Positions 39,376 to 64,000 of a stretch of DNA of 64,000 nucleotides are shown piece by piece; the first letter of the stretch is position 1, and every line of letters begins with the position of its first letter. The notes under the pieces are model-generated. The model was given only the letters and a program-made list of their open reading frames with translations, ran no database searches and was not told where the DNA came from. The translations under genes and the position numbers were made by a program. Source of the stretch: Syntrophales bacterium (lineage in GTDB: Bacteria; Desulfobacterota; Syntrophia; Syntrophales; Fen-1087); NCBI GenBank assembly GCA_034678725.1, contig JAXDBM010000049.1, positions 10,878 through 74,877 on the forward strand, given 5' to 3'.

Positions 39376-39381
39376 GATTCG

Positions 39382-48400: not shown

Positions 48401-49477
48401 TCAGAGGGGTCCCTTCTTGGCGGCGTGCGCCTCCAGGGCATTTTGGATGATGCGGTCGATCAGGTCGGCCTGCGTGATCCCGGCGGCCGCCGCCTGATGG
48501 AACAGGACGGTGGAGGGCGTCATCCCCGGCAGGCTGTTGGGCTCGAGCACCGCGATCCGACCGCTTTCGGTGACGAACATGTCGATCCGGGCATAGCCCT
48601 TCAGATCGAGCGCCTGAAAACTCCGGACTGCGATGTCCCGGATTTTTTCCAGAGTTTCCTTCGGCAGGCGTGCCGGGGTCTTGTTCTCGCCCTGCCCGTA
48701 GAGGAATTTGTCCTCCAGGGACAGGATCGCCGTCGTCGGGATCGTCTCGGAGGGGGTGAGCGCGACGGGATGGTGATTCCCGACGACCCCGCAGGTGACC
48801 TCCATGCCGGTCAGAAATTCCTCGACCAGGACGGTGTCATCCCAGGCAAAGGCCCCTTCCAGCGCCTCGGGGATGCCGTCCGCGGAGACGACCTTCCGGA
48901 CCGCCGTGCTGCACCCTTCCCGGGTGGGCTTGACCACGCAGGGGTAGCCGATCTCCGAGGCGATCTTCTTCAGGATCGCCTCGCGGCTGTCAGGCGTCCA
49001 TTGTCCACTGAAAATCGGCAGCGTGCGGGGCACGTCGATGCCGCTGATGGACAGGATCTTTCGGCCGGTCCACTTGTCCATGCCCAGTGCCGAGGCCAGA
49101 ACGCCCGAGCCGGTGTAGGGGATTCGTACAAGCTCCAGGAGCCCCTGCATGCAGCCGTCCTCTCCGTATTTGCCGTGCAGCCCCAGGCAAACCACGTCGA
49201 CCCGGGATTTGATCTGCTCATAGGCGATGGGCGTTGCCTCGTCGGGAAGGTCCTCCTCGATGTCCCGAGTGCTGTTGCGCATCAACAGTTTGATCGGGAT
49301 TTCCCAGAGGGCCGCCCTGCTGTCCATGAAAATGGCGACCGGATCGTATTTCCGGCGGTCGATCTTGCTGTAGATGTTTCTGCCGCTCTCCAGGGAGACC
49401 TCCTTTTCCGATGAGACTCCCCCCATGATGATGCCGACCCGGAGTTTGGCGGCGGGATGATCCGTTGATGAAGCCAT
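48401..49477 (-). CDS. ddl: D-alanine--D-alanine ligase family protein (paralogue 1; omega-loop Lys-Phe)
   Basis: IIMGGVSSEKEVSLESG, LHGKYGEDGCMQGLLELVRIPYTGSG, and an ATP-grasp C-terminus LEPNSLPGMT. The omega-loop reads ILSLEDKFLYG. Confidence 0.9.
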   Translation of the reverse strand: MASSTDHPAAKLRVGIIMGGVSSEKEVSLESGRNIYSKIDRRKYDPVAIFMDSRAALWEIPIKLLMRNSTRDIEEDLPDEATPIAYEQIKSRVDVVCLGLHGKYGEDGCMQGLLELVRIPYTGSGVLASALGMDKWTGRKILSISGIDVPRTLPIFSGQWTPDSREAILKKIASEIGYPCVVKPTREGCSTAVRKVVSADGIPEALEGAFAWDDTVLVEEFLTGMEVTCGVVGNHHPVALTPSETIPTTAILSLEDKFLYGQGENKTPARLPKETLEKIRDIAVRSFQALDLKGYARIDMFVTESGRIAVLEPNSLPGMTPSTVLFHQAAAAGITQADLIDRIIQNALEAHAAKKGPL

Positions 49478-49495
49478 GGCTGTTGTTCCTTGGAT

Positions 49496-50275
49496 TTAGA
49501 AACCGATGGAAATTCCAACAAAAGGCCCGTTGCAATCCACATCCGCGTAAATGTCGCTGATGTCGTCCAGTTCGAGCTTCATGACGCGATAACCCGCGTG
49601 AATGTCGAGAAAAGGGAAGGGGGTCACGGAAATCTCCGCCGAGGCGTCGTAGAACTGGTTGCCGGAGTAGCCGGTCCAGGCGCCGTTCACGCGGGCCTCC
49701 AGGATGTTGGCGATCAGCCCGATATGCAGTCCCGCCCCGACCATGGGAAGAACGGCGGTGAACGTCCGTTTCTGCTCGCCCAGTTCCGCGGAGGACATCC
49801 TCGTTTCGCCGTCGATGTACCGCACCCTTCCCAGCAGCCCGAAGGAGAAGCCTCCCAGAGCGTTCTCCAGGTTGACAAGGTCGTACCGGTACTCCCCGTC
49901 GAACATGTTTATTTTGAAGCTGGAATCGACGACGGAATTCGTTTGATAGGCTTGGCCGTTGAAGGTGATGGGCCGGCTGATGCTCGCGCTCGCCGAATAA
50001 TCCAGCGGCGTGTACATGACGCTGAAGTGATGGTTTCCGCCTCCGGCATAGACTTCCACGGAATAGGTCAGCTCATCGTCGAGCCCCAGATCGTCTTTCA
50101 GGTCTACATTGTCGCCTTTTATTCCGTCTTTGTCCGCACGCATCGTGCCCTCGATTTTGGGCATCCACAGAAATCCCCGCGCGCCGAATTCCACGGCGCC
50201 GGCGCTTGCCGACAGCATGGTCACGATCAGAAATCCGGCAAGCGCGGCCAGAACCACCCCGTGCTTTTTTTTCAT
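49496..50275 (-). CDS. Outer-membrane beta-barrel protein (259 aa)
   Basis: ATG 50275. Signal peptide MKKKHGVVLAALAGFLIVTMLSASAGA, alternating strands, and C-terminal ...VGISIGF. Confidence 0.7.
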   Translation of the reverse strand: MKKKHGVVLAALAGFLIVTMLSASAGAVEFGARGFLWMPKIEGTMRADKDGIKGDNVDLKDDLGLDDELTYSVEVYAGGGNHHFSVMYTPLDYSASASISRPITFNGQAYQTNSVVDSSFKINMFDGEYRYDLVNLENALGGFSFGLLGRVRYIDGETRMSSAELGEQKRTFTAVLPMVGAGLHIGLIANILEARVNGAWTGYSGNQFYDASAEISVTPFPFLDIHAGYRVMKLELDDISDIYADVDCNGPFVGISIGF

Positions 50276-50403
50276 GAAACCTCCTGAAAACGCCCGCATC
50301 CGCGCATCCGCGCATTTTTTAGAATCCGCGGCAACATCGCAAATAATCCCGTCCAGTGCAAGCGAAAATGCATTCCCGTTCCCGCCATGCCCGGCGCTGA
50401 ATT

Positions 50404-51459
50404 TCAGAGGGGGCCCTTCTTGTCCCGGTGGATCGCGAGGGCGTTCCGGATCAGGGCGGAGATGATCATCCCGGGCAGGAGGCCGGCGCTGGCAGCCTGC
50501 TCGAAGAAAAAGGAGGAGGGTGCCATGCCGGATGAAGAGTTGGGGTCGGTGATCAGGATCCGGCCGTCCTTCAGGCAGAATCCGTCAATGCGGCCGTAGG
50601 AGCGGAATCCAAGGGCATGGTAGGCCCGAAGCACGGATTCCCGGATTCGATCCGCCGTTTCGCGGGGGATGTTTTTCGGCGGCGTGAATTTGCGGCATCG
50701 TCCGGGCATGTACTTGTCGTCATAGGTGTAGTAGGCGCTCTGCGGGTAGATTTCCGTCAGTTCCAGCACCCGGGCCTCTCCATCGTCCTCCAGGACGATG
50801 GCGGAAAATTCGATGCCGTCGAGATACTCCTCCACCAGGGCGGCGTTGTCCCATTGGAGGGCGGCGTCGATGCCCGCCGCGAGGCCGGCCGGATCGTCCA
50901 CACGGGTGACGCCGACGCTCGATCCTTCGCGGGTCGGTTTCGTGAAGAAGGGGAAGGAAAACCGCTCCAGGATCTCCTTTTGGACGGCCTCCCGCCTTTC
51001 CCGCCAGTCCCATGCGGTAACGACCATGCTGCGCGGCACATCGATTCCCTCCGACATCAGGACTTTCTGCTGGAGATGCTTGTCCATGCCGAGGGCGGAT
51101 GCCAGGACGCCGGGGCCGGTGTAGGGGATGTTCAGGAGTTCGAGCAGCCCCTGGATGCAGCCGTCGTCCCCGTACTTTCCGTGCAGGGAGATGAAGGCGA
51201 AATCGATTTCCCTTTTCAGGTCCTCGTAGGCGATCCGGCGGGCCTCCCCTTCGAGGTGGTCGGAGATGTCCAGGGTCGTGTTCTGGGAGATGAGCTGCCA
51301 CGGAATGACCCACAGCCTCCCCTCGGCGTCCATGAAGATGGGAACGGCCCCATACAGCTCGGGGTCGAGGTTGTCGTGAACGTTCCTTCCGCTGTTGAGG
51401 GAGACCTCACGTTCCGAAGACATCCCCCCCAGAATGATCCCGATGCGCAGTTTTTTCAT
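50404..51459 (-). CDS. ddl: D-alanine--D-alanine ligase (paralogue 2; canonical omega-loop Lys-Tyr)
   Basis: ATG 51459. IILGGMSSEREVSLNSG and LHGKYGDDGCIQGLLELLNIPYTGPG. The omega-loop YYTYDDKYMPG resembles E. coli DdlB FYDYEAKY. Confidence 0.9.
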   Translation of the reverse strand: MKKLRIGIILGGMSSEREVSLNSGRNVHDNLDPELYGAVPIFMDAEGRLWVIPWQLISQNTTLDISDHLEGEARRIAYEDLKREIDFAFISLHGKYGDDGCIQGLLELLNIPYTGPGVLASALGMDKHLQQKVLMSEGIDVPRSMVVTAWDWRERREAVQKEILERFSFPFFTKPTREGSSVGVTRVDDPAGLAAGIDAALQWDNAALVEEYLDGIEFSAIVLEDDGEARVLELTEIYPQSAYYTYDDKYMPGRCRKFTPPKNIPRETADRIRESVLRAYHALGFRSYGRIDGFCLKDGRILITDPNSSSGMAPSSFFFEQAASAGLLPGMIISALIRNALAIHRDKKGPL

Positions 51460-51734
51460 CGTCTCTTCCCGGAGTCGCGCCGCCGCGGGCATCGCGCCCG
51501 GATCGCGTCCGGTCGGCTGCACGTTCGGCTGAGGCGCCCCTTCCAATTATTTTTTTACGGTTCGTGCCGCATTTCATACTTTACAACGGCTTTACCGTCG
51601 AGGAAATGTTTTGCCGTATATCACAGTCGGCGGGCGGTGGGAAGACCGTGCAAGTAGGGCGGGCCGGAGACGGCCTGAAGGTCCGGGCCGCGGCCGGCGG
51701 ACCGTCGAACGCATGACCGGTGACGGGGCTGCGG

Positions 51735-53720
51735 CTACGCCCAGATAAATGTGACGCCGCTGGTGGGAAAGATCCACTCGTCGTCGCTGATCCGGAGTGT
51801 GATGGACCGGTCCTTCACTCGGGTGATCACCGGTGAGGGGTTCCTCCCGGCGAAGAAGCTGATCTCCCGGACATTCCGGACGCGCGCCCCCTCGTAGTTG
51901 AAGCGGATGTCCAGCCCCCGCGTGGGGTAGACCAGATAAACGGAGAACAGGTTGTTGCGCTTCGATTTCTTGGTCACGATTTCGATTGCAATCCTGGCCT
52001 GGCGGTTGACTTTTTTCTTCAGATCCTCGCCGCCGCACCAGACCTCGTAGCCCCGGTCCGTGATTTCCGTCCGAATGATGGGGACCGGATCATCGTCGAT
52101 ACAGACGCGGCTCACCCGGAAATCCTTTTCCGTGATCGCCTCGTCGCGTTGGCCGAGCAGCCAGCGGTACTCGCACCGCTTATCGTCGAACAGCGAGGCG
52201 AGCTGCTCGTTATTCATGGCGCAGCCGATCATGAAGACGGGATGGCTGAGGGCCTTGGTGTATTCGATGCGCGTGGTGACCTTGAAATCATCTCCGGACG
52301 GGCGATCGGAGGCCATTTCCGCCTCCGTGAATTCCTCGATGTGGATGTCGTAGCGGAAGTTCGTCCGCAGCTCGAGCTGCCGGTCCTCCTTGCCGAACAG
52401 GGTTTCGAACATCTCGTAGTAGATGGCGTCGCCCAGCTCCTCGCTGCGCGCCCGGGTCTGGAGGCAATGCCGGAGGATGTTGTCGATGCGGGCAAGGGAT
52501 TTTTCCTCGTCGGGGATGAAGACCCTCCGGAGGCGGGGAGCCACGGTGTCCGTTTTGCCCTTCTGCAGGAAGACCCGCGGCGCCCGCTTGCCCAGGGCGC
52601 ACAGGATCTCGTAGCTGATGGTCCGGATGCGGTTCGCGATCTCGTTGGCGGTGATCGCTTCGCTTCCCTGCCGGCCGAGGATCACCACCTCGTCCCCCAC
52701 TTGGCAGTCCTGAATGTGGCTGACATTGACGGTGCACATGTCCATGGAAACCCGCCCGACGATGGCGGCCCGCTTTCCCTGAATGAGCACCTCGCCCTGG
52801 TTCGACAGGAGCACGTCGTAGCCGTCCCCGTAGCCGACGGGGATCGTCGCGATCCGGGTGGGCTTGTGGGTCATATAGGTCCGGTTGTAGCCGATGCTGT
52901 AGCCTTCCGGAAACTCTTTGATGAGCACGATCCGGGTCTTGAAGCTCATGACCGGGGCGAGGCTCGCCTTTCCTGCGGTGTCGGGCGAGGGGTAGATGCC
53001 GTAGGACATGATGCCCGGCCGGACCATGTCCAGGTGGAACCCGGGGTAATTGAGGATGCCCCCGCTGTTGCACATGTGCCGGACGGGAATCCGGACCCGG
53101 TGGGCCGCCAGCTTGTCCAGCAGATCCTTGAACAGGCGCCACTGCCGGTCGTTGTACTCGATCATCACCTCGCTGGCCGCCAGGTGGGTGAAGATCCCCT
53201 CGACAACGACGTTCGGAAATGCGAGGATTTCCCGGATCATGTCGAAGGCCTCGTAATGGATGGTGCCGCCGCGGCCCATCCCGGTGTCCACCTCGATGTG
53301 TATGGGGGCCTTGATCCCCGCCTTGCGGAACTGCCTCTGCAGCTCCCGGGCAAAACAGATGTCGGAGACCGACGGTGTCAGGTTGTACTTGATGATCTGG
53401 CCGATTTCGTAATCCGGCGAGGGGCTGAGGATGACGATGGGTGCGCTGATGTCGCTGACCCGGAGCTGAACGCCCTCATCCGCGTTGGCGACGCCGAGGC
53501 AGGCCGCGCCGTTTTTCAGCGCCACATTGGCGATTTCCATCGCGCCGTGCCCGTAGGCGTCGGCCTTCACCACCTGCATGATGCGCACGGCAGGGCCCAC
53601 GAGCCGCTTCATCTCATTCCAGTTTTGGGTGAAGTGATCGAGGTCGACTTCCACCCAGCTTCTGTACCGCTGTTCCTCTTTCAACGCCATGTCCCCTGTC
53701 CCCGGGCCGCTTCCACACAT
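51735..53720 (-). CDS. alr: Alanine racemase fused to a ~276-aa C-terminal domain of unknown function
   Basis: The PLP-lysine block VVKADAYGHG and the Alr fold to about aa 385 (..ISYEILCALGKRAPRVF). A further 276 aa have no motif I recognise. ATG 53690 is an alternative start. Confidence 0.85.
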   Translation of the reverse strand: MCGSGPGTGDMALKEEQRYRSWVEVDLDHFTQNWNEMKRLVGPAVRIMQVVKADAYGHGAMEIANVALKNGAACLGVANADEGVQLRVSDISAPIVILSPSPDYEIGQIIKYNLTPSVSDICFARELQRQFRKAGIKAPIHIEVDTGMGRGGTIHYEAFDMIREILAFPNVVVEGIFTHLAASEVMIEYNDRQWRLFKDLLDKLAAHRVRIPVRHMCNSGGILNYPGFHLDMVRPGIMSYGIYPSPDTAGKASLAPVMSFKTRIVLIKEFPEGYSIGYNRTYMTHKPTRIATIPVGYGDGYDVLLSNQGEVLIQGKRAAIVGRVSMDMCTVNVSHIQDCQVGDEVVILGRQGSEAITANEIANRIRTISYEILCALGKRAPRVFLQKGKTDTVAPRLRRVFIPDEEKSLARIDNILRHCLQTRARSEELGDAIYYEMFETLFGKEDRQLELRTNFRYDIHIEEFTEAEMASDRPSGDDFKVTTRIEYTKALSHPVFMIGCAMNNEQLASLFDDKRCEYRWLLGQRDEAITEKDFRVSRVCIDDDPVPIIRTEITDRGYEVWCGGEDLKKKVNRQARIAIEIVTKKSKRNNLFSVYLVYPTRGLDIRFNYEGARVRNVREISFFAGRNPSPVITRVKDRSITLRISDDEWIFPTSGVTFIWA

Positions 53721-54002: not shown

Positions 54003-54019
54003 ACATGGGGGGTGATAAT

Positions 54020-54253
54020 ATGAAATCAGCAGCAACACGCGCCACCGTATACCTGGACCCGGAATTACATAAAGCTCTTCGCTTAAAGGCAGTTGAAACA
54101 TCACAGTCTCTATCGAAATTAGTGAATGATGCCATCAAAGAATCTCTGGCGGAAGACGCTGAAGACATTGCAGCTTTTGGGGAAAGAGTTAAAGAGCCCT
54201 TAATCAGTTACGAAACAATGATCAAGAGGCTGAAAATCGATGGCAAAATATGA
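54020..54253 (+). CDS. Ribbon-helix-helix (CopG/RelB-like) type II antitoxin
   Basis: ATG 54020 preceded by GGGGGTGA. RATVYLDPELHKALRLKAVETSQSLSKLVNDAIKESL is an RHH pattern. It overlaps the toxin gene by 14 nt. Confidence 0.75.
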   Translation: MKSAATRATVYLDPELHKALRLKAVETSQSLSKLVNDAIKESLAEDAEDIAAFGERVKEPLISYETMIKRLKIDGKI

Positions 54254-54497
54254 AATCTATTTCAAACAATCCGTCGAAAAAGACTTCCGTGCGATACCCA
54301 AAAAAGATTTAAGGAAGATTATCCATTGCATTGAGGCGCTTTCTAAAGATCCGAGACCCCCAGGCCATGAAAAACTAACAGGGCAAGAGAGATACCGTGT
54401 TCGACAAGGGCGGTACAGGATTATCTATTCCGTTCAGGAGAAAGAGCTTACAATTTGGATCGTGAAGGTGGGGCATCGAAGAGATGTTTATCGCTGA
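54240..54497 (+). CDS. relE: RelE/ParE-family type II toxin
   Basis: YRVRQGRYRIIYSVQEKELTIWIVKVGHRRDVY, the typical RelE/StbE C-terminal signature. Confidence 0.85.
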   Translation: MAKYEIYFKQSVEKDFRAIPKKDLRKIIHCIEALSKDPRPPGHEKLTGQERYRVRQGRYRIIYSVQEKELTIWIVKVGHRRDVYR

Positions 54498-54546: not shown

Positions 54547-54811
54547 CGCTAAATGACTGCCCGGGCGATGCTCTGCCGTTTACAAGAAATCCGTGCTGTC
54601 CCGGTGTGAAGCACTCTTCCCGGTGCGAACGGGATTACCCACCTTTACCCTTCATTTTACAATGCTGTTCTGATCCGCGGAAATCTTTCCTGTAAAATAT
54701 TCATCAATCATTACAAAAACATGAGATTCATTTCCCTGCCGGATGGCCCTTTTGGCACGATTCCTGATTGCAACCGACGCCGAAAAGACTTTTCACAAGG
54801 GAGGCATGCAG

Positions 54812-55762
54812 ATGACGGCTTCAAGAAACAGGGTGGCCGCGGTCTTTCCGGGGCAGGGCGCCCAGCGGCCTGGCATGGGGCGGGACTTCCATGACCGCGC
54901 CGCCGTCTGCCGGGAGACCTACGAGGAGGCATCGGATGCGCTGGGTTGGGACGTTGCCGCCATGTGCTTCGGGAACGACGAGCGGCTGGACCGAACGGAG
55001 TACACGCAGCCCTGCCTGCTGACGACGGAACTGGCAATGTTCCGGGGACTTTGCGAGCTGCATGGGATTCATCCGTCCCTTTACGGGGGTCACAGCCTCG
55101 GCGAGTTTACCGCCCTGGTCGCGGCCGGCGTCATTCCCCTTTCCGATGCCGTCCGGATCGTGCAGTCGCGGGGCAGGCTGATGCAGGAGGCGGCCCCGGC
55201 CGGCCTGGGCGGAATGGCGGCGGTGATTGCCGACGCGCTGGATGCCGACGACCTCGATCACGCCCTGTCCGATCTTCCCGTCGATATCGCGAATGTCAAC
55301 TCGCCGAAGCAGATCGTTCTCAGCGGGGCCGCGGAGGCCCTGTCCGAGGCGGCGGTCCGGATCGTCGATGTCCTGGAGGAAGGCAGGCCCTTCCGCTTCG
55401 TTCCCCTCAATGTCAGCGCCCCCTTTCACAGCCGGTTCATGCGCTGTGTGGAGGGCGAATTTTCAAGGATCCTCCAGTCCCTGAGCGAACGGATGGACGC
55501 GAAAAAAGCCGTCGCGGTCACTTCCAATTTCACCGGCGGATTCCACGAAACGAACCCGGATGATCTGCTGAGCGCCCTCACCTGCCAGATCGGGAGCCGG
55601 GTCCGCTGGGTGGACAACATGGAAGCCATCGCCGCGGAGGCCGATCGGATCTACGAAATCGGCCCGGCCCGGCCGCTCCGGGAATTTTTCAAATCGATCG
55701 ATGTCCACTGCCTGTCCGTGACGACGCTTTCCTCGGCGTCCCGGCTGTTCGGGAGCAATTGA
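54812..55762 (+). CDS. fabD: Malonyl-CoA:ACP transacylase
   Basis: AAVFPGQGAQRPGMG and active-site GHSLGEFTALVAAG. ATG 54812 lies 7 nt after AAGGGAGG; ATG 54806 is an alternative. Confidence 0.9.
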   Translation: MTASRNRVAAVFPGQGAQRPGMGRDFHDRAAVCRETYEEASDALGWDVAAMCFGNDERLDRTEYTQPCLLTTELAMFRGLCELHGIHPSLYGGHSLGEFTALVAAGVIPLSDAVRIVQSRGRLMQEAAPAGLGGMAAVIADALDADDLDHALSDLPVDIANVNSPKQIVLSGAAEALSEAAVRIVDVLEEGRPFRFVPLNVSAPFHSRFMRCVEGEFSRILQSLSERMDAKKAVAVTSNFTGGFHETNPDDLLSALTCQIGSRVRWVDNMEAIAAEADRIYEIGPARPLREFFKSIDVHCLSVTTLSSASRLFGSN

Positions 55763-55765
55763 GAC

Positions 55766-56965
55766 ATGGACTTCCATCTGAACGATCAGCAGCAGATGTA
55801 TGTGGACACGGTCCGCCGCTTCGTCCGGACGGAGATCCTGCCGCAGGTCATGGACATGGAACGGAAACACGTTTTCCCCATGCAGATCATCCGCAAGGCC
55901 TGGGAGACGGGCATCCTCAATCTCAGCATTCCGGACGCGATCAAGGAGTACGAGATCGACGCCGTATCGTCCGCGCTGATCATCATGGAGCTTTCCTACG
56001 GCGATTCGGGGATCGCCACGTCGGCCATGTGCAACGATCTCGCCAACGTGATCATCGCCCGTCATGGGAGCGCCGCACAACAGGAGCGGTTCCTCCGCCC
56101 CTTCGTCGAAAGGCCGCTGTTGGCTTCCTTCTGCCTGACCGAACCGGGTGCAGGCTCCGACAACGGCGCCATGATCTCCTGCATGAGCAAGCAGGCGGAC
56201 GGCTCGTACCGGCTCAACGGAACGAAATGCTTCATCACCAATGCCTCCTACGCATCCCAGTTCACGGTCTTCTGCAAGGTGGGAAAGCCGGGCAGTTCGC
56301 TGATGGCCTGCGTCGTCGTTCCCGCCGGGTCCGTTTCCCCGGAAGATATGCAGGGCGATGGAGAAGGGATCCGGGAGATCGACATCGCGGCGGGCGGGAA
56401 AATCGTCGTCGCGAAGGCGGAGGACAAGCTCGGGCAGCGCCTGTCCAACACGGCCGGTGTCACCTTCGAGGACGTGGTGATTGCCCCCGACCAGATCATC
56501 GGGGACCGGCGTCTGGGATTCCGCTACATCGTCGATGTCCTCGACTACGCCCGGCCCATGGTGGCGGCGATCGGCGTCGGGCTGGCGAGGCGCGCGCTGG
56601 ATGTCACGCTGGCCTACACCCGGGAGCGCCGCCAATTCAGCCAGCGCATCTGCGACCTTCCAGTGGCGCGGGAATCGCTGGTGGCCATGTGGAAAAAAGT
56701 GGAAATGGCGGAGATGGCCCTGCTGAAGTCCGCCTGGAAACTCCAGACGGGGGCGCCGGACGGCGGCCTCTACGCCTCGCTGGCGAAAAATGCCGCAGCG
56801 GAGGCGTCCCTCTTCTGCGCGAACGAGGGGCTCCACCTCCACGGCGGCTACGGATTCATGTCGGAATACGAGATTTCGAAGCTGGTCCGGGACGCCCATA
56901 TCCTCGACATCTACGAGGGCGTCCGGGAGGTCCAGAACATGATCATCGGCCGGGAGCTGGTCTGA
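55766..56965 (+). CDS. Acyl-CoA dehydrogenase-family flavoenzyme (possibly acting on acyl-ACP)
   Basis: ACAD fold: CLTEPGAGSD, FITNA and the C-terminal catalytic-Glu block DIYEGVREVQ. It starts 3 nt after the fabD stop, and its stop overlaps the fabH start (TGATG). Confidence 0.9.
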   Translation: MDFHLNDQQQMYVDTVRRFVRTEILPQVMDMERKHVFPMQIIRKAWETGILNLSIPDAIKEYEIDAVSSALIIMELSYGDSGIATSAMCNDLANVIIARHGSAAQQERFLRPFVERPLLASFCLTEPGAGSDNGAMISCMSKQADGSYRLNGTKCFITNASYASQFTVFCKVGKPGSSLMACVVVPAGSVSPEDMQGDGEGIREIDIAAGGKIVVAKAEDKLGQRLSNTAGVTFEDVVIAPDQIIGDRRLGFRYIVDVLDYARPMVAAIGVGLARRALDVTLAYTRERRQFSQRICDLPVARESLVAMWKKVEMAEMALLKSAWKLQTGAPDGGLYASLAKNAAAEASLFCANEGLHLHGGYGFMSEYEISKLVRDAHILDIYEGVREVQNMIIGRELV

Positions 56966-57954
56966 TGGCGCTTTACCTGCACGGTCTGGGTCACTTCCAC
57001 CCGGAGAACGTGATCTCCAACCGTTTCCTCGAGGAGCTGGACATCGGCACGACCCAGGAGTGGATCATGGAGCGGGTCGGCATTCAGGAGCGCCGCACGG
57101 CCCTTTCCCTGGACTATATTCAGGCGACGCGGAACCGCGATCCGCGGGCGGCGCTGGAGGCGAGCAGCCATACGAACGCGCGGATCGGCGCGGCGGCGGC
57201 CCGAATGGCCTTGGATCGGGCGGGGCTCGGTCCGGAGGACATCGGCCTCGTCGTTTCCGGAAGCTCGGCCCCGGACCACGTCACGCCCGCCGAGGCGGCG
57301 GTGGTGGCGGCGGAACTGGACATCGAAGCGCCCTGTTTCGACATGAATGCCGCCTGCGCCACCTTTGGCGTGCAGATGCATTTTCTGAGCGGAATGCGGC
57401 CGGAAGCGCTTCCGCCTTACGTCCTGGTGGTCAACCCGGAGAGCCTCACCCGCTGCGTCGATTATTCGGACCGGAACACGGCTGTGCTCTTCGGGGACGG
57501 CGGCACGGCGGCCGTCGTCTCGGCGGCCGTGCCGTCGCGCATTCATGTTCAGGACTGCCGTTGCGATGCCCGGCCGTCGGCCTGGCGGAAGGCGTCGATT
57601 CCCCGTACCGGCTATTTCCGGCAGGAGGGGAACGCCGTCCAGGGGTTTGCAATCCGCCGCATGACGGACACCGTCCGAATGCTTCAGGATTCCCACGGCC
57701 GCAACGGCCATCGCTTTCTCTTCGCCGGACACCAGGCGAACCTGGGAATCCTGCAGACGGTCTGCGCGCGGACGGGAATCGCGGAGGATCACCACTGGCA
57801 CAATGTGGTCCGCTTCGGCAACGCCGGCTGCTCGGGCGCGCCTGCGGCCGTGAGCCAGCGCTGGGGCGATCTGAAGCCGGGCGACCGTCTGGCCATGGCT
57901 TTCGTGGGCGCGGGGCTGAGCTGGGCGTCTCTGATGCTGGTAGTCGAGGAATGA
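56965..57954 (+). CDS. fabH: 3-oxoacyl-ACP synthase III (FabH-like)
   Basis: These are the last 329 codons of track ORF 55759..57954. Cys-His-Asn triad contexts DMNAACATFG, GHQANLGI and FGNAGCSG. Confidence 0.85.
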   Translation: MALYLHGLGHFHPENVISNRFLEELDIGTTQEWIMERVGIQERRTALSLDYIQATRNRDPRAALEASSHTNARIGAAAARMALDRAGLGPEDIGLVVSGSSAPDHVTPAEAAVVAAELDIEAPCFDMNAACATFGVQMHFLSGMRPEALPPYVLVVNPESLTRCVDYSDRNTAVLFGDGGTAAVVSAAVPSRIHVQDCRCDARPSAWRKASIPRTGYFRQEGNAVQGFAIRRMTDTVRMLQDSHGRNGHRFLFAGHQANLGILQTVCARTGIAEDHHWHNVVRFGNAGCSGAPAAVSQRWGDLKPGDRLAMAFVGAGLSWASLMLVVEE

Positions 57955-57996: not shown

Positions 57997-58602
57997 ATGA
58001 GAATCGGTTACCGGGAATTCCGGGAGAGGAAAAGTTTCGGCCTGGCTGACCTGATCGCCTTTTCCCGCGGCAGCCTGGTGGCGGATCCCCCGGCGGGATT
58101 CGAGGCAAGGCTGCCCGCCCCGCCGTTCCTGATGGTGGACCGCATCCTGCGGATCGAGGCCGACGGACGGAGGGGAAAGATCGTGGCGGAGCAGGACATC
58201 CGCCTGGACGCCTGGTATTTCCAGTGCCATATGCCCGGGGACCCGGTGCAGCCGGGCTGTTTGTGCGTGGATGCCGTCTGGCAGCTCCTGGGATTTTACG
58301 GGACCTGGCGTGGCGGTCTGGGTGCGGGGAGGGCGCTGGGGTGCGACGGGGTGGCCTTTACCGGCCAGATCCGGCCCTACCACCGAGTCGTACGTTTCGA
58401 AATCGACATTCGCCGCTTTGCCGTTCTGGCCGATTCGGGAGCCGGCATCGTGATCGGCGACGGCGCGATCTCCGTCGACGGCGAGCCCGTTGCCGAGGTC
58501 CGTCAGGCCCGGACAGGCCTGTTCCGGGGAATCGTCTATGGCGGTTACCCCTGGCCGGAAAGCGCCGGGGAAGGGCGCATGCCGGCCGGTTGCACGGCAT
58601 GA
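57997..58602 (+). CDS. fabA: FabA-type 3-hydroxyacyl-ACP dehydratase / trans-2-decenoyl-ACP isomerase homologue
   Basis: LPAPPFLMVDRI and YFQCHMPGDPVQPGCLCVDAVWQLLGFY align with E. coli FabA LPAPNMLMMDRV and [28 protein letters not shown]. The catalytic His and Asp are retained. Confidence 0.85.
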   Translation: MRIGYREFRERKSFGLADLIAFSRGSLVADPPAGFEARLPAPPFLMVDRILRIEADGRRGKIVAEQDIRLDAWYFQCHMPGDPVQPGCLCVDAVWQLLGFYGTWRGGLGAGRALGCDGVAFTGQIRPYHRVVRFEIDIRRFAVLADSGAGIVIGDGAISVDGEPVAEVRQARTGLFRGIVYGGYPWPESAGEGRMPAGCTA

Positions 58603-58613: not shown

Positions 58614-59357
58614 ATGGCATCATCCGGTCAGCCGGACCAACCCGTTGCGGTTGTAACCGGAGCCGCCACGGGCATCGGGGCCGCCTGCGCCCGAGCGCTG
58701 GCGGAGAAGGGCTTTCGGGTCGGCATTCACTATCGGCGCAGCACCGCTGCGGCCGGGGCCCTGATGGCCGAGCTGGGTGAAGCATTCCTGCTCCGCGGGG
58801 ACTTGTCGCGGGAAGAGGATGTCGATGGCATCGTGGAGCGGATCAAGGACGAGGCGGGGCGGGTGGACGTCCTCGTCAACAATGCGGGCCTGTCGCTCAA
58901 TGCCGACATCCACGCCATGCGCCTCGAACAGTTCGACGAGCAGCGGGCCCTGACGCGCGGGACCTGGTACCTGACCAAGCGCATCCTGCGGCAGTTCATG
59001 ATACGACGCAACCGGGGGCGGATCATCAACATCACCAGCGTCGTCGGACACACGGGCAACGGGGGGCAGATCGCCTACACGATGGAGAAGGCCGCCCTGG
59101 ACGCCTTCACCCGGTCCCTCGCGAAGGAGCTGGCGGGCCGGGACATTCTTGTGAATTCGATTGCGCCCGGCTTCATCGACACGGACATGACGGCGGACCT
59201 TCCGGAAGAGGTCCGGGAACGCATCCTCGCCGGCATTCCCATGGGGAGAATGGGCAGGCCGGACGAAGTGGCCGAGGTGGCGGCCTTCCTGGCCAACGGC
59301 GGGAGCTACATCACGGGCTCCGTGATCCACGTCAACGGGGGGCTCTATGGCGGCTGA
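58614..59357 (+). CDS. fabG: 3-oxoacyl-ACP reductase (SDR, FabG-like)
   Basis: TGAATGIGAA, NNAG, and YTMEK (the YxxxK motif). ATG 58614 follows AAGGGGGA; ATG 58599 (ATGA overlap with fabA) is an alternative. Confidence 0.85.
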   Translation: MASSGQPDQPVAVVTGAATGIGAACARALAEKGFRVGIHYRRSTAAAGALMAELGEAFLLRGDLSREEDVDGIVERIKDEAGRVDVLVNNAGLSLNADIHAMRLEQFDEQRALTRGTWYLTKRILRQFMIRRNRGRIINITSVVGHTGNGGQIAYTMEKAALDAFTRSLAKELAGRDILVNSIAPGFIDTDMTADLPEEVRERILAGIPMGRMGRPDEVAEVAAFLANGGSYITGSVIHVNGGLYGG

Positions 59358-59817
59358 CGAACAAATGAAGGCGATCATTCTGAAGGCGATTCCCCAGCAG
59401 CCGCCGTTCCGTTTCATCGACGAGTTGCTGGAGCTGGATGACGATCGCAGCATCGGCGCCTACCGGTTCCGGCCGGACGAGTACTTCTACCGGGGGCATT
59501 TTCCCGGACGTCCCGTGACGCCCGGCGTCATCCTCATCGAGGCCATGGCCCAGACGAGCATCGTCGCCCACGGGCTGTACCTTTCCATGAAGAAAAGTGG
59601 ATCGTCTCCGGATGACTTGAAGCGAATCAGCACCCTGTTCACCTGCGCCGAAACGGTGGAATTCACCGGGATCGTGGCGCCGGGCGAGCGGATCGTCTTC
59701 CGGGGGGAAAAGGTCTATTTTCGCATGGGGAGCCTGAAGGCAAAAATTGTTGCGGAGCGGGAGACCGGGGAAGTCGTCTGCCGGGGAACGCTGGCCGGCA
59801 TGGGGGTCCGTTTATGA
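59347..59817 (+). CDS. FabZ-like hot-dog fold 3-hydroxyacyl-ACP dehydratase
   Basis: PPFRFIDEL and YRGHFPGRPVTPGVILIEAMAQ match the FabZ catalytic His/Glu block. Overlaps fabG by 11 nt. Confidence 0.75.
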   Translation: MAADEQMKAIILKAIPQQPPFRFIDELLELDDDRSIGAYRFRPDEYFYRGHFPGRPVTPGVILIEAMAQTSIVAHGLYLSMKKSGSSPDDLKRISTLFTCAETVEFTGIVAPGERIVFRGEKVYFRMGSLKAKIVAERETGEVVCRGTLAGMGVRL

Positions 59818-61094
59818 AAAAGCGAGTCGTGATTACGGGCATGGGGGTGACCGCGCCGAATGCCCACGGGCTGGAGGCCTTTGAGTCGGCCCTGCGCGAG
59901 GGCCGGTCGGGGATCCGCTTCATCCCGGAGCTGAAGGAGTTGAATTTCGCCTGCCAGGTGGGCGGCATCCCGCAGGATTTCGAAAGGATCCGCAAGCAGT
60001 ATTTCGATCATGAAAAGCTGCTGTCGATCAACGACAACATCGGCTATGCCTCCGTCTCGGCCATCGACGCCTGGCGGGATGCCGGCTTCGACATCCCGGA
60101 TCCCGAAGACGACCGGGTCGACTGGGACACGGGGATCGTGATCGGATCCGGAATCGGCGGCATGGATACGATCGCCCGTTCCGTCGTGCCGATGGTGAAC
60201 GACGGCAAGGTCCGCAGGCTGGGAAGCCGGATCGTCGAGCAGGTCATGAACAGCGGCACCAGCGCCCGGATCGCCGGGCTGCTGGCACTGGGGAACCAGG
60301 TGACTTCCAATTCGTCGGCCTGCAGCACCGGCAACGAGGCCATCATCGAGGCCATGCTGAAGATCCGGACGGGCCGGGCCAGGCGGATGCTGGCTGGAGG
60401 CTCGGAAGGGGCCTCGCCCTACATCTGGTCCGGGTTCGACGCGATGCGCGTCATCTGCCGGAAGTTCAACGAAGCGCCGGAGCAGGCCTCCCGGCCCATG
60501 AGCGCCACCGCGGGCGGCTTCGTTCCCGGCGCCGGCGGGGCGGTGCTGGTCCTGGAAGATCTGGAGACGGCCAGACGGCGCGGCGCGCGCATCTACGCCG
60601 AGGTCCTCGGCGGCGCCCTGAACTGCGGCGGCCAGCGCCGGGGCGGGTCCATGACGGCGCCCAACCCGGACGGCGTCAGCCGCTGCATCCGCGGGGCCAT
60701 CGCGGACGCGAATGTTTCGCCCCGCGACATCGACGCCATCAACGGCCACCTGACGGCCACCTATGCTGACCCCATGGAAGTCCGGAACTGGTCCGCGACG
60801 CTCGGCCTTCCGCCGGAGGATTTTCCCCTGATCAACGCGACGAAATCACTGATCGGACACTGCCTCGGCGCCGCCGGGGCCATCGAAAGCGTCGCCGCCG
60901 TCCTGCAGATCCACAGGGGGTTCGTCCATCCCTCGGCAAACTGCGAGGATGTCCACCCCGAACTGGAGCGCTTCGCCGACAAAATCCCCCGAAAGGCCGT
61001 GGACGTGCCCGGCCTCAAGATCGTCGCCAAGGCCGGATTCGGATTCGGCGACGTCAACAGTTGCCTGATCTTCCGAAAATGGGAAGAGAATTGA
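59814..61094 (+). CDS. 3-oxoacyl-ACP synthase I/II (FabB/FabF-like elongating KS)
   Basis: Cys-His-His triad contexts SNSSACSTGNEAI, INGHLTAT and KSLIGHCLGAAGAIE. ATGA overlap with the upstream gene. Confidence 0.9.
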   Translation: MKKRVVITGMGVTAPNAHGLEAFESALREGRSGIRFIPELKELNFACQVGGIPQDFERIRKQYFDHEKLLSINDNIGYASVSAIDAWRDAGFDIPDPEDDRVDWDTGIVIGSGIGGMDTIARSVVPMVNDGKVRRLGSRIVEQVMNSGTSARIAGLLALGNQVTSNSSACSTGNEAIIEAMLKIRTGRARRMLAGGSEGASPYIWSGFDAMRVICRKFNEAPEQASRPMSATAGGFVPGAGGAVLVLEDLETARRRGARIYAEVLGGALNCGGQRRGGSMTAPNPDGVSRCIRGAIADANVSPRDIDAINGHLTATYADPMEVRNWSATLGLPPEDFPLINATKSLIGHCLGAAGAIESVAAVLQIHRGFVHPSANCEDVHPELERFADKIPRKAVDVPGLKIVAKAGFGFGDVNSCLIFRKWEEN

Positions 61095-61124: not shown

Positions 61125-61370
61125 ATGGATGAGAAACAGATTTTTGCGGAGATGATCGGCATTCTGAGGGTGTACACGAAGGACGCGACCCTCCTGGACA
61201 AAGCCACGCCGGCCACCCACATCCTGGACGATCTCAAGGTCAATTCCGCCCGCCTGGTGGATGTGATCATCAAGTGCGAGGACGTCTTCGGGATCACGAT
61301 CGAGGACGACGAGGCCGACAAGATCCGCACCATCGGCGATGCCGTTGAACTGGTCAAGAAGAAGCAATGA
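61125..61370 (+). CDS. Acyl carrier protein (dedicated)
   Basis: 81 aa, acidic helical bundle, with a putative phosphopantetheine serine in LDDLKVNSARLVD. Confidence 0.85.
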   Translation: MDEKQIFAEMIGILRVYTKDATLLDKATPATHILDDLKVNSARLVDVIIKCEDVFGITIEDDEADKIRTIGDAVELVKKKQ

Positions 61371-62188
61371 CTTTTCCCGCGGCTTTTCAGATCCGTCTGC
61401 AGTCCTTCCTGGGGCTCGCGGTCGCCTGGATCCTGGCGCCGGCCTATTTCCTCCTGATCCGCATCGCGGGCTGGCGCGTCAGGGACCTCGCCGGAACCCG
61501 AAAACGATGGGCGGAACTCCGGAAGGGCCATCAGGGGCCCTGGCTGGTCTGCGGCAATCATCTGACCATGGTCGATTCCATGATCATGACCTACTCCATG
61601 ACGTCCCTGGGAGGGCACCTCACGGCTTACCGGAGTCTGCCCTGGAACCTGCCGGAGCGGACCAACTTCAATCGAAACAAGCTGTTGGCCGCCCTGTGCT
61701 ATCTGGCGAAGTGCATTCCGGTGAGACGGGGCGGCGCCCGGGAGGAAATGCGCGGCGCCCTCGCGAAATGCGATCATCTGCTGCGCCGGCGGCAGAACCT
61801 CATGGTCTTTCCCGAGGGGGGCCGATCCCGGACCGGCCGGGTCAACCGGGAGGATTTCTCTTACGGCGTCGGGCGCTTTCTTCAGGACCACCCGGACTGC
61901 CGCGTGGCGTGCGTCTATCTGCGGGGCGACGGGCAGGATGTCTACGGGACGCTGCCCCGGCGGGGCGAATCGTTTTCGGTGATGCTCGAGGAGTTCCGGC
62001 CCTGCCGGAACGGGCTGCGGGGGTTGCGGGAACAGCGGGACCTTGCGGGTCAGATCGTTCGGCATCTGGCCGGAATGGAGGAAAGGCACTTTGATCTGCA
62101 TCGGCAACGATATTGTGGACTTGAACCATCCGGGAAACCGGGGAAAAAGCCGGGACCGGCGCTTCGTTTCCCGTGTCTTCACCCCTGA
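61367..62188 (+). CDS. PlsC/LPLAT-family acyltransferase (lysophospholipid acyltransferase-like)
   Basis: The HX4D motif (GNHLTMVDS) and FPEGGRSRTG. ATGA overlap with the ACP gene. Confidence 0.8.
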   Translation: MTFPAAFQIRLQSFLGLAVAWILAPAYFLLIRIAGWRVRDLAGTRKRWAELRKGHQGPWLVCGNHLTMVDSMIMTYSMTSLGGHLTAYRSLPWNLPERTNFNRNKLLAALCYLAKCIPVRRGGAREEMRGALAKCDHLLRRRQNLMVFPEGGRSRTGRVNREDFSYGVGRFLQDHPDCRVACVYLRGDGQDVYGTLPRRGESFSVMLEEFRPCRNGLRGLREQRDLAGQIVRHLAGMEERHFDLHRQRYCGLEPSGKPGKKPGPALRFPCLHP

Positions 62189-62837
62189 GGAGCGGGAACG
62201 GATCGACGGCGCCGACGCGCCTGATGCGGTGCTCTGGATGCTGTGGGCCGCAAAAGAGGCCGCCTTCAAGGCGGCCGTCAAGCGAAGACAGGGGATCCCT
62301 TTCATCCCCCGAATGTATTCGGTCGCTCTTGAAGATCGTTCATATTCCGGTGATTGCGGGCAGGGCAATCCGCATGGCATCTCGATGGCGTCCGGCATCG
62401 AGGAAGAGCGGTCCGCTGCACACTGCGGCGTCGTCATGACGCCCGCGGGCCCCGTCGAGCTTTCCTGTTTCCGCTCCGCCGGCCATGTCCACTGTGTCGC
62501 GGTCGTGAACGGCGCATACCGCACGGCCCAGCCCGATTCCGGTGTTCGCGCCTTCGTCAGAAAACTGACCGGCCCCGCCGATCCCTCCATTGCGCTTCGC
62601 CTGGAGACCATTCACTATCTGGCTTCCGCCTTGAGGATTTCCCCCTATTTCATTCGAATCCGCCGCGAGAAGATGGGTGCCGAATCCGGCCCCCCCAGGA
62701 TTTTCATGGAAGGGCGGCCCGCGGACATCGACATCAGCCTGAGCCACGACGGCCGGTACATCGCCTTTGCCGTTCACCTGCCGGGCGCAGGGTATGCGTC
62801 CGAACGCCGCCAGGCGGTCCCTGCCTGCGCTTTCTGA
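62091..62837 (+). CDS. 4'-phosphopantetheinyl transferase superfamily protein
   Basis: ICIGNDIVDL, WAAKEAAFKA and ISLSHDGRYIAFAV motifs. There is no ATG. TTG 62091 lies 9 nt after GGAGG (TTG 62043 is an alternative). The gene overlaps the acyltransferase gene by ~98 nt. Confidence 0.7.
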   Translation: MICIGNDIVDLNHPGNRGKSRDRRFVSRVFTPEERERIDGADAPDAVLWMLWAAKEAAFKAAVKRRQGIPFIPRMYSVALEDRSYSGDCGQGNPHGISMASGIEEERSAAHCGVVMTPAGPVELSCFRSAGHVHCVAVVNGAYRTAQPDSGVRAFVRKLTGPADPSIALRLETIHYLASALRISPYFIRIRREKMGAESGPPRIFMEGRPADIDISLSHDGRYIAFAVHLPGAGYASERRQAVPACAF

Positions 62838-63099
62838 ACCGGGCCGCACCGGTATCCGGGGAAGGGGCGGGCAGCCGTTCCGAAGTCTGCCGGACAAGAG
62901 CCTGTTTTCCCTGTTATTCCAGTGATTTTACCGATTTTTTCAGTCGCAAGAAATCTGGCAAGAAATCTAACCTTGACAGGGCTGTGAAATCATGATAACC
63001 GCTCGCACGGTTTGCGGTCCCCCCTGTGCATGGGCCGTGCGTAAGGCGCGTCATCCATGTTCTTTAAATTTCGAATCGAATCCGTACAGGAGTGAAAAG

Positions 63100-64000
63100 G
63101 TGTTGAAAGATAACGAGAAAGTCGGCGCGGTAATGGTCGTCGGGTCGGGCATCGCCGGTATTCAGGCGTCCCTGGACCTCGCAAATTCCGGTATGAAAGT
63201 GTACCTCGTGGAGAACGGGATCAGCATCGGCGGCGTCATGGCCCAGCTCGACAAGACCTTTCCCACCAATGACTGCTCGGCCTGCATCCTCTCCCCGAAG
63301 CTTGTGGAAGTGGGGCGTCATCCCAACGTGGAGATCATGACCCGCCGCACGGTGGAGTCCGTGGAGGGCGAGCCGGGCAGATTCAAGGTCAAGCTGACCC
63401 GGGCCCCCCGGTTTGTCGATCTGGACAAGTGCACGGGCTGCGGCGACTGCGCCAATGCCTGCCCCGTGTCCGTCAAGTCGGATTTCAACGAAAACCTGAA
63501 CGAGCGCAAGGCCACCTACCGCCATTTCCCCCAGGCCATACCCAGCGGTTACGCCATCGACAAACTCGGGACCTCCCCCTGCAAGGCGGCCTGTCCCACC
63601 CATATCAGCGTCCAGGGCTATGTGGCCCTCATCTCCGCGGGCAAGTACAAGGAAGCCCTCAAGCTCATCAAACAGGAGAACCCCTTCCCGTCCGTCTGCG
63701 GCCGGGTCTGCAACCATCCCTGCGAGGAGGCCTGCATGCGGGGCAAGGTCGAAGCGCCCATCGACATCATGCACCTCAAGCGCTTCGTGGCCGATCTGGA
63801 CCTGAACGCCGAGACCCGCTACATCCCGGAAGTCAAGGAGAAAAAAGATAAAAAGGTTGCCGTTGTCGGCGCCGGTCCGTCCGGCCTGACGGCCGCCTAC
63901 TATCTGGCCGCGAACGGATATGGCGTGGATGTCTTTGAAGCCCTGCCCGTGGCCGGCGGCTGGATGGCGGTGGGGATCCCCGAATACCGCCTCCCCAAGG
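63100..64000 (+). CDS. HdrA-like FAD/Fe-S oxidoreductase with an inserted GltD-like NAD(P)H module; the 3' end lies outside the window
   Basis: Not in the ORF track because no stop falls inside the window. GTG 63100 lies 7 nt after AGGAG. VMVVGSGIAGIQASLDLANSG, DKTFPTNDCSACILSPKL (HdrA signature), CTGCGDCANACP, then NPFPSVCGRVCNHPCEEAC and VAVVGAGPSGLTAAYYL (GltD-like). Confidence 0.8.
   Translation, partial: MLKDNEKVGAVMVVGSGIAGIQASLDLANSGMKVYLVENGISIGGVMAQLDKTFPTNDCSACILSPKLVEVGRHPNVEIMTRRTVESVEGEPGRFKVKLTRAPRFVDLDKCTGCGDCANACPVSVKSDFNENLNERKATYRHFPQAIPSGYAIDKLGTSPCKAACPTHISVQGYVALISAGKYKEALKLIKQENPFPSVCGRVCNHPCEEACMRGKVEAPIDIMHLKRFVADLDLNAETRYIPEVKEKKDKKVAVVGAGPSGLTAAYYLAANGYGVDVFEALPVAGGWMAVGIPEYRLPK

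Follow-up and report, generated by a model that had tools for sequence, protein, structure and literature searches.

What does an enzyme with the fold of the acyl-CoA dehydrogenases (ACADs) do among genes of fatty acid synthesis? The question is raised by a 64,000-nucleotide stretch of DNA from a Syntrophales bacterium (GenBank assembly GCA_034678725.1, contig JAXDBM010000049.1), referred to here as the window, in which an ACAD gene lies between the genes of a FabD-like malonyl-CoA:acyl carrier protein (ACP) transacylase (AT) and a FabH-like ketosynthase (KSIII). The public annotation of its product is 'acyl-CoA dehydrogenase family protein'. Based on the gene context, family relationships and predicted active site described below, we propose, with a probability of roughly 0.45, that this protein is a FAD-dependent enoyl-ACP reductase fed by an electron-transfer flavoprotein (ETF) encoded elsewhere. 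What appears to be new here is the recruitment of an ACAD into ACP-dependent lipid synthesis.

An ACAD-fold enzyme within a fatty acid synthesis operon

The ACAD start codon (ATG 55766) is separated by a gap of 3 nt (GAC) from the stop codon of the upstream FabD-like open reading frame (ORF; TGA 55760-55762), and the ACAD stop codon (TGA 56963-56965) shares one base with the KSIII start codon (ATG 56965-56967) in the sequence TGATG. An earlier reading of this DNA made from the letters alone (the sequence-only reading) had described the ACAD as starting 3 nt past the fabD stop and its stop as overlapping the fabH ATG, and the coordinates confirm this arrangement. In other genomes, the tblastn matches to ACAD and KSIII end 0-12 nt apart at 65 of 71 loci.

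The ACAD gene belongs to a tightly packed plus-strand operon of 10 genes, encoding in this order AT, ACAD, KSIII, a FabA-like dehydratase/isomerase (FabA), a ketoacyl-ACP reductase (KR), a FabZ-like dehydratase (DH; DH2 in Table 1), an elongating ketosynthase (KS), an ACP, a PlsC-type acyltransferase (PlsC) and a 4'-phosphopantetheinyl transferase (PPTase). The catalytic motifs are all intact, namely Cys-His-Asn in KSIII, Cys-His-His in KS, YxxxK in KR, His/Asp in FabA, His/Glu in DH and HX4D in PlsC. FabA alone passes an NCBIfam equivalog cut-off (NF003509, 188.6 against 124), and the remaining operon members fall below theirs: AT slightly (TIGR00128 fabD, 237 bits against 260.9), KSIII at 194.5 against 249 (NF006829), and KS in both the fabF (298 bits) and fabB (262 bits) models. 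KR, with a YxxxK motif and not the Yx6K of the FabI type, is the sole short-chain dehydrogenase/reductase (SDR) of the operon. Judged by these matches, the operon looks like a diverged, self-contained system of the type II fatty acid synthase (FAS) kind with its own ACP and PPTase. It is predicted to assemble an acyl chain on its own ACP, activated by its own PPTase, with transfer of the chain to a lipid acceptor by PlsC. The ACAD is an integral, co-transcribed part of this operon and is probably translationally coupled within it.

None of the FabI, FabK, FabL, FabV, Etf or β-oxidation families was found in the Pfam-scanned ORFs of the window, a few short or alternative ORFs lying outside the scan. 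The sequence-only reading had noted that β-oxidation and Etf genes are lacking nearby, which the scan extends to 64 kb. It had also regarded the ACAD as the sole enzyme of the cluster able to set or remove a double bond. The first part of this claim fails, as the FabA-like and FabZ-like dehydratases set the double bond; the second part stands, the ACAD being the only candidate in the cluster for its reduction.

The ACAD product matches PF02771, PF02770 and PF00441 (the N, M and C domains), each above the Pfam gathering cut-off. Its top sequence match in the PDB is medium-chain acyl-CoA dehydrogenase (MCAD; 1.5e-67, 32-34% identity). MCADs are also the best Foldseek matches of the AlphaFold2 model (pLDDT 81, pTM 0.86), with TM values of 0.80-0.83 for the predicted fold. 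By fold, the ACAD is a member of the acyl-CoA dehydrogenase superfamily. The motif DIYEGVREVQ aligns to the YEGT motif of MCAD, which puts Glu384 (codon 56915-56917) at the position of MCAD Glu376. This residue is invariant across the family, in agreement with the C-terminal catalytic glutamate context recognized earlier from the sequence.

Isolation of the ACAD family

The homologue search covered 1.84 billion representatives of clusters at 50% identity. It returned one full-length representative at 68% identity, after which the score drops from 635 to ~230 bits, the level of ordinary single-domain ACADs (<=38% identity). Intermediate scores belong to fragments, to two-domain ACAD fusions and to one distant relative, P0127. 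Members from Syntrophales (Syntrophaceae, Smithellaceae) are 69-94% identical, and the family is present in up to 467 species-level genomes. Identity to ACADs outside the FAS-linked lineage is at most ~38% (34% to P0133 by BLASTP).

The best NCBIfam model is that of acryloyl-CoA reductase AcrC, which is the closest named family, yet the score of 230 bits is far under the cut-off of 640. FadE scores 201 against 600 and glutaryl-CoA dehydrogenase (GCDH) 167 against 470. Among models of ACADs acting on carrier proteins, MbtN gives 33.8 bits against 700, PigA 162 against 500 and RedW 146 against 650. In the PDB sequence search, AnaB (4IRN) reached 118 bits and MCAD 231 bits, and neither FkbI nor TcsD was found within the top 60 matches. 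Hidden Markov model scores against curated families served here as a proxy for a tree in judging kinship to enzymes of the FkbI/TcsD type. The kinship with FkbI-, TcsD- and MbtN-type enzymes suggested in the sequence-only reading is not borne out by these scores, and the closest solved structures are MCADs. Clustering with butyryl- or glutaryl-CoA dehydrogenases, which had been named beforehand as part of the outcome that would speak against that reading, is likewise not seen, because the ACAD is at most ~38% identical to sequences outside its lineage and lies far below all NCBIfam equivalog cut-offs. As placed by sequence comparison, the ACAD is outside every curated ACAD family, CoA- or carrier-protein-dependent, and every known class of enoyl reductase (ENR).

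The insertion relative to short- and medium-chain ACADs that had been noticed earlier is real. It comprises residues 187-207 (21 aa, nt 56324-56386), has no counterpart in pig MCAD, and corresponds to a gap in 97-100% of the 106 nearest non-family ACADs. In the AlphaFold2 model it would sit between two β-strands of the middle β-domain. As a functional clue it has to be given up, being absent from a clade of Margulisiibacteriota type that is 59% identical and has the same gene context. Its sequence is also variable among relatives, and an essential ACP-docking element was ruled out on these two grounds. From the alignments, the insertion is to be viewed as a Syntrophales peculiarity and not as a functional hallmark.

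Conservation of the gene context

Synteny was analyzed in the 80 best genome loci, 60 of which have at least 6.2 kb of downstream sequence and are informative. KR, DH, KS, ACP, PlsC and PPTase each follow the ACAD in 60/60 of them. KSIII is found in 43/60; in the other 17/60, all of which keep the ACAD, it is cleanly absent or decayed. FabA is found in 35/60 and is absent from Smithella-type clusters. Short KSIII-like remnants are seen between ACAD and KR at two loci (L053, 11205-11366; L068, 11205-11315), suggesting ongoing decay of KSIII in some Smithella lineages that retain an intact ACAD. Of 64 loci, 27 have AT adjacent to the ACAD, 19 have it no more than 3 kb away and 18 lack it. In its minimal Smithella form the cluster reads ACAD-KR-DH-KS-ACP-PlsC-PPT, which would give each step of elongation a single enzyme, provided that the ACAD is a reductase.

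The genes flanking the cluster differ among genomes, and the conserved unit is therefore the cluster itself. The median identity is 72% for the ACAD, compared to 74% for KS, 75% for ACP, 69% for KR, 63% for KSIII, 58% for DH and 51% for PlsC. Such values indicate that the ACAD is under strong constraint and among the most conserved members of the cluster. The tie of the ACAD to ACP-dependent enzymes, which the sequence-only reading drew from a single locus, extends to 60/60 informative Syntrophales loci and to relatives at 59% and 37% identity.

It is noted that in one Smithella sp. locus (L037) a gene at 8462-9874, read from the sequence by eye as transcarboxylase 5S / oxaloacetate decarboxylase alpha-like, lies between AT and ACAD. 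The same AT-ACAD spacing of 1.5-2.5 kb recurs at other Smithella loci. The 5S-like gene of L037 may make an ATP-independent supply of malonyl-CoA possible.

The more distant relatives fall into two groups. The first is a clade of 381-aa proteins, 57-59% identical to the window ACAD, one member of which is labelled Candidatus Margulisiibacteriota by its source. One gene order in this clade is ACAD-FabA-KSIII-DH-ACP-KS-PlsC-PlsC-ACPS. Between Syntrophales and Margulisiibacteriota, the ACAD is 59% identical and KS, KSIII, DH and FabA are 31-39% identical. The second is P0127 (497 aa, 37% identical), which has the family motifs in common and many insertions. It is encoded on a metagenome contig of 30% GC (L086), where the genes at 520-13719 have the order ACAD-KSIII-FabA-KR-DH-KS-ACP-PlsC, as in Syntrophales, with a 1586-aa fused acetyl-CoA carboxylase (ACC) upstream and doubled hot-dog proteins (two FabA domains, two DH domains). 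Taken together, at least three very distant lineages have the ACAD linked to genes of FAS and phospholipid synthesis.

Genes for the supply of acetyl- or malonyl-CoA are found in several of these clusters: transcarboxylase 5S-like in L037, ACC in L086, and 2-oxoacid:ferredoxin oxidoreductase (OFOR) in L089 and L091. L091 (JGI 3300035660, 4056-18716) is a lipid 'super-operon' of the Margulisiibacteriota type with the order PlsC-Pss-Psd-CdsA-PlsC-OFOR-ACAD-ACAD-KSIII-DH-ACP-KS-ACPS, followed by two B12 radical-SAM genes. It includes three OFOR subunits, two tandem ACAD paralogues and a CdsA/CarS-like gene; ABC transporter genes lie further downstream, and the overlapping locus L092 adds an MGDG-synthase-like gene. 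With a radical-SAM pair beside genes for FAS and phospholipids, the product could be an unusual membrane lipid, such as one that is methylated or spans the membrane.

Predicted active site and ETF-docking surface

Glu384, the preceding Tyr383 and the motifs CLTEPGAGSD, FITN and GGYGF are invariant in the family, leaving the motifs on the isoalloxazine side of the FAD intact. The ACAD is accordingly predicted to be redox-competent. The residues of MCAD that dock ETF, and Glu212 as the salt-bridge partner, have been described (PMC10925408). Y12, G49, I50, L53, Y62, I64 and I72 of the ACAD align with MCAD F23, G60, L61, T64, L73, L75 and I83, so that the counterparts of the ETF pocket are hydrophobic in character, and Glu219, at the position of MCAD Glu212, is invariant. 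Features of the ETF-docking surface are thus predicted to be retained.

At the floor of the acyl pocket, MCAD Gln95 is replaced by Ala/Ser84 and Glu99 by Met88, which suggests that the pocket of the ACAD may be more hydrophobic and possibly deeper. MCAD Thr255, which forms a hydrogen bond with the adenine of CoA, is replaced by Ala262 in the family, a position where Gly is common among the nearest non-family ACADs. Phe takes the place of MCAD Trp166, as it does in most of the nearest non-family ACADs. The β5-β6 loop, a contact site for the CoA phosphates, is about as long as in enzymes similar to butyryl-CoA dehydrogenase (Bcd) and is not shortened as in TcsD.

Several residues define a clade of Syntrophales and Margulisiibacteriota sequences, being present in <=15% of the nearest other ACADs: Asp247-Arg248-Arg249 (Gly-Glu-Gly in MCAD), Arg387 (MCAD Ala379), Arg294 and Arg302. 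Arg248-Arg249 and Arg387 are invariant in the family and found in 0-4% of the nearest non-family ACADs; these three arginines may be near the substrate entrance. Pro299 (MCAD Gln292) and His357 (MCAD Gln349) also define the clade; they hardly vary within the family and are seldom found in other ACADs. The two MCAD glutamines presumably contact the adenosine part of FAD. With these signature residues and the gene context, the family is now sharply delimited.

Proposed function as an enoyl-ACP reductase

We infer that the substrate of the ACAD is the growing chain in thioester linkage, most probably to the cluster ACP. In the proposed mechanism, trans-2-enoyl-ACP would be reduced to acyl-ACP, the elongation step for which the operon otherwise has no enzyme. 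The proton would come from Glu384 and the hydride from FADH2, and an ETF or some other low-potential donor, with its gene elsewhere in the genome, would return the FAD to the reduced state. The reaction would run in the reductive direction, by analogy with Bcd, AcrC and caffeyl-CoA reductase (CarC) in anaerobes.

We favor an enoyl reductase because enoyl reduction is the single step that the Syntrophales clusters would otherwise leave without an enzyme, all other steps having one, and because the ACAD is universal in them while the starter enzyme KSIII and FabA are optional. The retained ETF-docking features argue in the same direction, as does the precedent of ACADs that reduce enoyl thioesters in anaerobes (Bcd, AcrC, CarC), with AcrC as the top named family. 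A complete synthesis module also fits the acetyl- and malonyl-CoA supply genes that join the cluster in several lineages. Butyryl-CoA dehydrogenase/EtfAB (5OL2), AcrC and CarC (6FAH) are ACAD-fold enzymes that reduce enoyl thioesters with Etf electrons in anaerobes. They take CoA esters, and their genes lie beside etfAB, whereas the context of the present ACAD is ACP-dependent, with no etf within 10 kb at any locus. Relative to MCAD (PDB 3MDD, 1UDY, 1T9G; Thermus thermophilus 1UKW), the three-domain fold, the Tyr-Glu catalytic pair, the FAD-side motifs, the ETF pocket and the Glu212 equivalent are shared. The 32-34% identity, the 21-aa insertion, the changed pocket floor, the family arginines and the location in a FAS operon without β-oxidation or Etf partners set the ACAD apart.

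A number of observations weigh against this proposal. Both the choice of ACP over CoA and the direction of the reaction are pure inference. A linked gene for Etf or another donor is lacking from all 93 sequences searched (the window and 92 loci, some of them redundant): no ETF family came up in the Pfam-annotated contexts, and a regular expression for the ETF-alpha signature had 0 matches in 1.6 Mb. Nor did β-oxidation genes turn up at the 92 related loci. The argument from a missing enoyl reductase holds at the scope of the cluster and the 64-kb window, and a canonical FabI, FabK or FabV elsewhere in the genome is possible. In the sequence alignment, the adenine-binding Asp (Asp260, MCAD D253) is invariant and the phosphate-binding Arg (Arg396, MCAD R388) is kept, so a CoA substrate is possible. 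One enzyme per step was also ruled out as a universal rule. Margulisiibacteriota clusters have no KR and no AT and would therefore depend on trans-acting FAS enzymes, among which a trans-acting enoyl reductase is equally possible; these clusters hold mainly specificity-determining enzymes, which favors a tailoring role. Three Smithellaceae loci (L048, L050 and L057) have only AT-ACAD-SDR in the 5.5-6 kb downstream. Their ACADs are 70-71% identical and their SDRs weakly KR-like (28-31%), that of L050 being read as a 255-aa HSD10-like protein; the other cluster genes are either elsewhere or lost. The next genes at L050 are MeaB-like and methylmalonyl-CoA mutase-like and unrelated to the cluster.

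Enoyl reduction is the bacterial FAS step that is most often replaced by other enzymes, and the enoyl reductase is a major antibiotic target. To our knowledge, the known replacements all use NAD(P)H directly. The ACAD would fill the enoyl reductase place in a fab-type operon, as fabK does among fabH, acpP and fabD in Streptococcus pneumoniae. FabI, FabL, FabK and FabV are SDR or TIM-barrel enzymes that use NAD(P)H, whereas the ACAD has its own fold, FAD and no NAD(P)H site. It is possible, if rather less than probable, that the clade adds to FabI, FabL, FabK and FabV a new bacterial class of enoyl-ACP reductase, one with ACAD fold, FAD and ETF electrons that serves strict anaerobes short of energy (Syntrophales, Margulisiibacteriota and others). 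If so, it would be a mechanistically different class, would explain how some anaerobes finish the cycle, and would connect lipid synthesis with flavin-based electron transfer in organisms at the thermodynamic limit. Should the Etf be bifurcating, the strongly exergonic enoyl reduction could be coupled to ferredoxin reduction and FAS would be partly energy-conserving. The term 'acyl-CoA dehydrogenase' has 0 occurrences in a 2022 review of ENR classes (PMC9260719). No account of the cluster or of an ACAD-type ENR was found in the full-text literature, where coverage is thin for subscription journals and a prior description is possible.

Alternative functions

The alternative that fares best, though we consider it unlikely, is the opposite reaction, in which an acyl-ACP α,β-dehydrogenase would convert saturated acyl-ACP to trans-2-enoyl-ACP. 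This estimate covers two variants jointly. In one, FabA or the ACAD itself would isomerize the product to the cis-3 form for anaerobic unsaturated fatty acid synthesis by FabX-like backtracking; in the other, the 2-enoyl chain would be passed to the acyltransferase, as with MbtN in mycobactin synthesis. ACADs acting on ACP are established, TcsD (10.1101/736256) and the NCBIfam families MbtN, PigA and RedW being examples. TcsD, FkbI, MbtN and PigA/RedW/AnaB share with the window enzyme the ACAD fold and coding with ACP, ketosynthase and acyltransferase; the window ACAD differs in being part of a FAS/phospholipid operon and not of a natural-product cluster, and it has no FkbH or HADH partner. 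A precedent for backtracking in primary FAS is Helicobacter pylori FabX, a flavoenzyme acting on the α,β position of acyl-ACP that dehydrogenates decanoyl-ACP (PMC8626469). FabX is an FMN/[4Fe-4S] enzyme of the NMO family that requires O2 and is both dehydrogenase and isomerase, whereas the window enzyme has the ACAD fold, belongs to strict anaerobes and is usually found beside FabA. In Margulisiibacteriota clusters, the ACAD directly adjoins FabA, and the lack of generic KR and AT makes these clusters resemble a specificity-determining set.

A dehydrogenase would, however, be redundant where FabA is present, as FabA and the FabZ-like DH already yield trans-2 and cis-3 enoyl-ACP. The occurrence of ACAD and FabA together in all three lineages points to distinct roles, and the ACAD is universal while FabA has been lost in Smithella. 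Disposal of electrons at about -10 mV would also be costly for syntrophs, and no acceptor gene is linked. Were the enzyme a dehydrogenase all the same, primary-type FAS/phospholipid operons would have their first example of an acyl-ACP dehydrogenase with the ACAD fold, and FabX an anaerobic counterpart.

Somewhat less likely again is a starter-unit enzyme at the CoA level, which would interconvert acyl-CoA and enoyl-CoA, for example branched-chain units from the adjacent OFOR, and so supply or edit the primer of KSIII. The translational coupling to KSIII in the window and the OFOR-ACAD-KSIII order in L089 and L091 would fit such a role. The fold and the nearest relatives are those of CoA-dependent ACADs, and the retained adenine-binding Asp and Arg388 equivalent, together with a β5-β6 loop that is not shortened as in TcsD, are also in its favor; TcsD, an ACP-dependent ACAD, has lost adenine-binding features of the CoA pocket (10.1101/736256), including the Asp that the window ACAD keeps and the Thr for which it has Ala. 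Against it, KSIII is absent or decayed in 17/60 Syntrophales clusters that keep the ACAD, the OFOR linkage is limited to some Margulisiibacteriota loci, and the very high conservation of the ACAD would be unexpected across lineages with differing starter-supply genes.

A different chemistry on the ACAD scaffold, such as γ,δ-dehydrogenation as in TcsD, isomerization only or a non-redox role, is improbable. The fold supports varied reactions, and the replacements of MCAD Q292 by Pro299 and Q349 by His357 are family-specific. The pair Tyr383-Glu384, however, matches Tyr375-Glu376 of MCAD and not Ile363-Glu364 of TcsD, and the FAD isoalloxazine-side motifs are intact. In TcsD, bulky Phe, Leu and Ile residues, including the Ile before the catalytic Glu, push the substrate outward (10.1101/736256), and these have no obvious counterpart in the window enzyme. 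Finally, an ordinary β-oxidation acyl-CoA dehydrogenase placed among fab genes by chance would agree with the public annotation and with MCAD as top structural match, but it is very improbable, being contradicted by the synteny data (FAS linkage at all 60 informative loci and across three distant lineages whose flanking genes are unrelated), by the lack of β-oxidation or Etf neighbors and by the isolation of the clade under all equivalog cut-offs.

Operon features and other genes of the window

The features of the operon are collected in Table 1. AT probably starts at ATG 54813, which follows a Shine-Dalgarno site (GGGAGG), and the likely start of PPTase is TTG 62091, behind GGAGGA.

Table 1. 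Genes of the ACAD-containing operon, with positions in the window and the basis of each assignment
Feature	Position	Strand	Basis
FabD-like malonyl-CoA:ACP transacylase (AT)	54743..55762	+	Pfam Acyl_transf_1; GHSLGE, Arg of RGRLMQ, APFHS motifs
ACAD-fold flavoenzyme, 399 aa	55766..56965	+	Pfam, PDB sequence match, AlphaFold2, Foldseek
KSIII (FabH-like), Cys-His-Asn triad	56965..57954	+	Pfam ACP_syn_III, ACP_syn_III_C; motifs NAACATF, GHQAN, FGNAG
FabA-like 3-hydroxyacyl-ACP dehydratase/isomerase	57997..58602	+	Pfam FabA; active-site motif CHMPGDPVQPGCL...VDAVWQL
FabG-like ketoacyl-ACP reductase (KR)	58620..59357	+	Pfam adh_short_C2, KR; TIGR01830 240 bits
FabZ/ApeI-ApeP-like dehydratase (DH2)	59347..59817	+	Pfam FabA-like; motif GHFPGRPVTPGV...EAMAQ; ApeP-like/ApeI-like matches on orthologues
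Elongating ketosynthase KS (FabF/FabB-like), Cys-His-His triad	59814..61094	+	Pfam ketoacyl-synt N and C domains
Divergent acyl carrier protein (ACP), NSARL replacing DSLD	61125..61370	+	NCBIfam ACP models 44-51 bits, under cut-offs
PlsC-type (lysophospholipid-type) acyltransferase	61367..62188	+	TIGR00530 domain match; HX4D, FPEGGRS motifs; Pfam Acyltransferase on orthologues
AcpS-type 4'-phosphopantetheinyl transferase (PPTase)	62043..62837	+	TIGR00556 domain match; Pfam ACPS on orthologues

Immediately upstream of the operon, at 54005-54497 (+), lies a pair of genes for a ribbon-helix-helix antitoxin (weak Pfam match) and a ParE toxin; L004, the closest relative (92% identity), has the ParE gene in the same place. 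Directly 3' of PPTase, a gene on the plus strand at ~62990-64000, running past the window end, encodes an HdrA-like N-terminus fused to a GltD/NfnB-like FeS flavoprotein (FAD_oxidored, Fer4, Fer4_20, NAD_binding_8). This flavoprotein was considered as a conserved electron-donor partner and ruled out, as it is found at this place only in L004 and partly in L045.

Elsewhere in the window, two D-Ala-D-Ala ligase paralogues (48401-49477 and 50404-51546) within 48401-53720 (-) surround an ORF at 49496-50299 that has no Pfam match. An adjacent gene encodes an alanine racemase of 661 aa, the last ~280 residues of which match nothing, and the region could be an alternative peptidoglycan-precursor module. 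At 9452-13831 (+), genes of a 2-oxoacid:ferredoxin oxidoreductase (POR gamma 9452-10015, TPP beta 12935-13831) are interleaved with one for a GltD/NfnB-like FeS flavoprotein (10034-11779), and the ORF at 11716-12945 is possibly the alpha subunit. An mla lipid-transport cluster occupies 36015-40251 (-), with MlaA at 36015-36977, MlaC at 37021-37614 and MlaE at 39382-40251; the ABC ATPase of this cluster (38131-39375) carries a fused GGDEF diguanylate-cyclase domain. A stretch at ~24000-28000 with a GC content of 0.50-0.52, compared to ~0.62 elsewhere, carries genes for a MarR regulator, a Na+/H+ exchanger and a ClC channel, and it may have been horizontally acquired.

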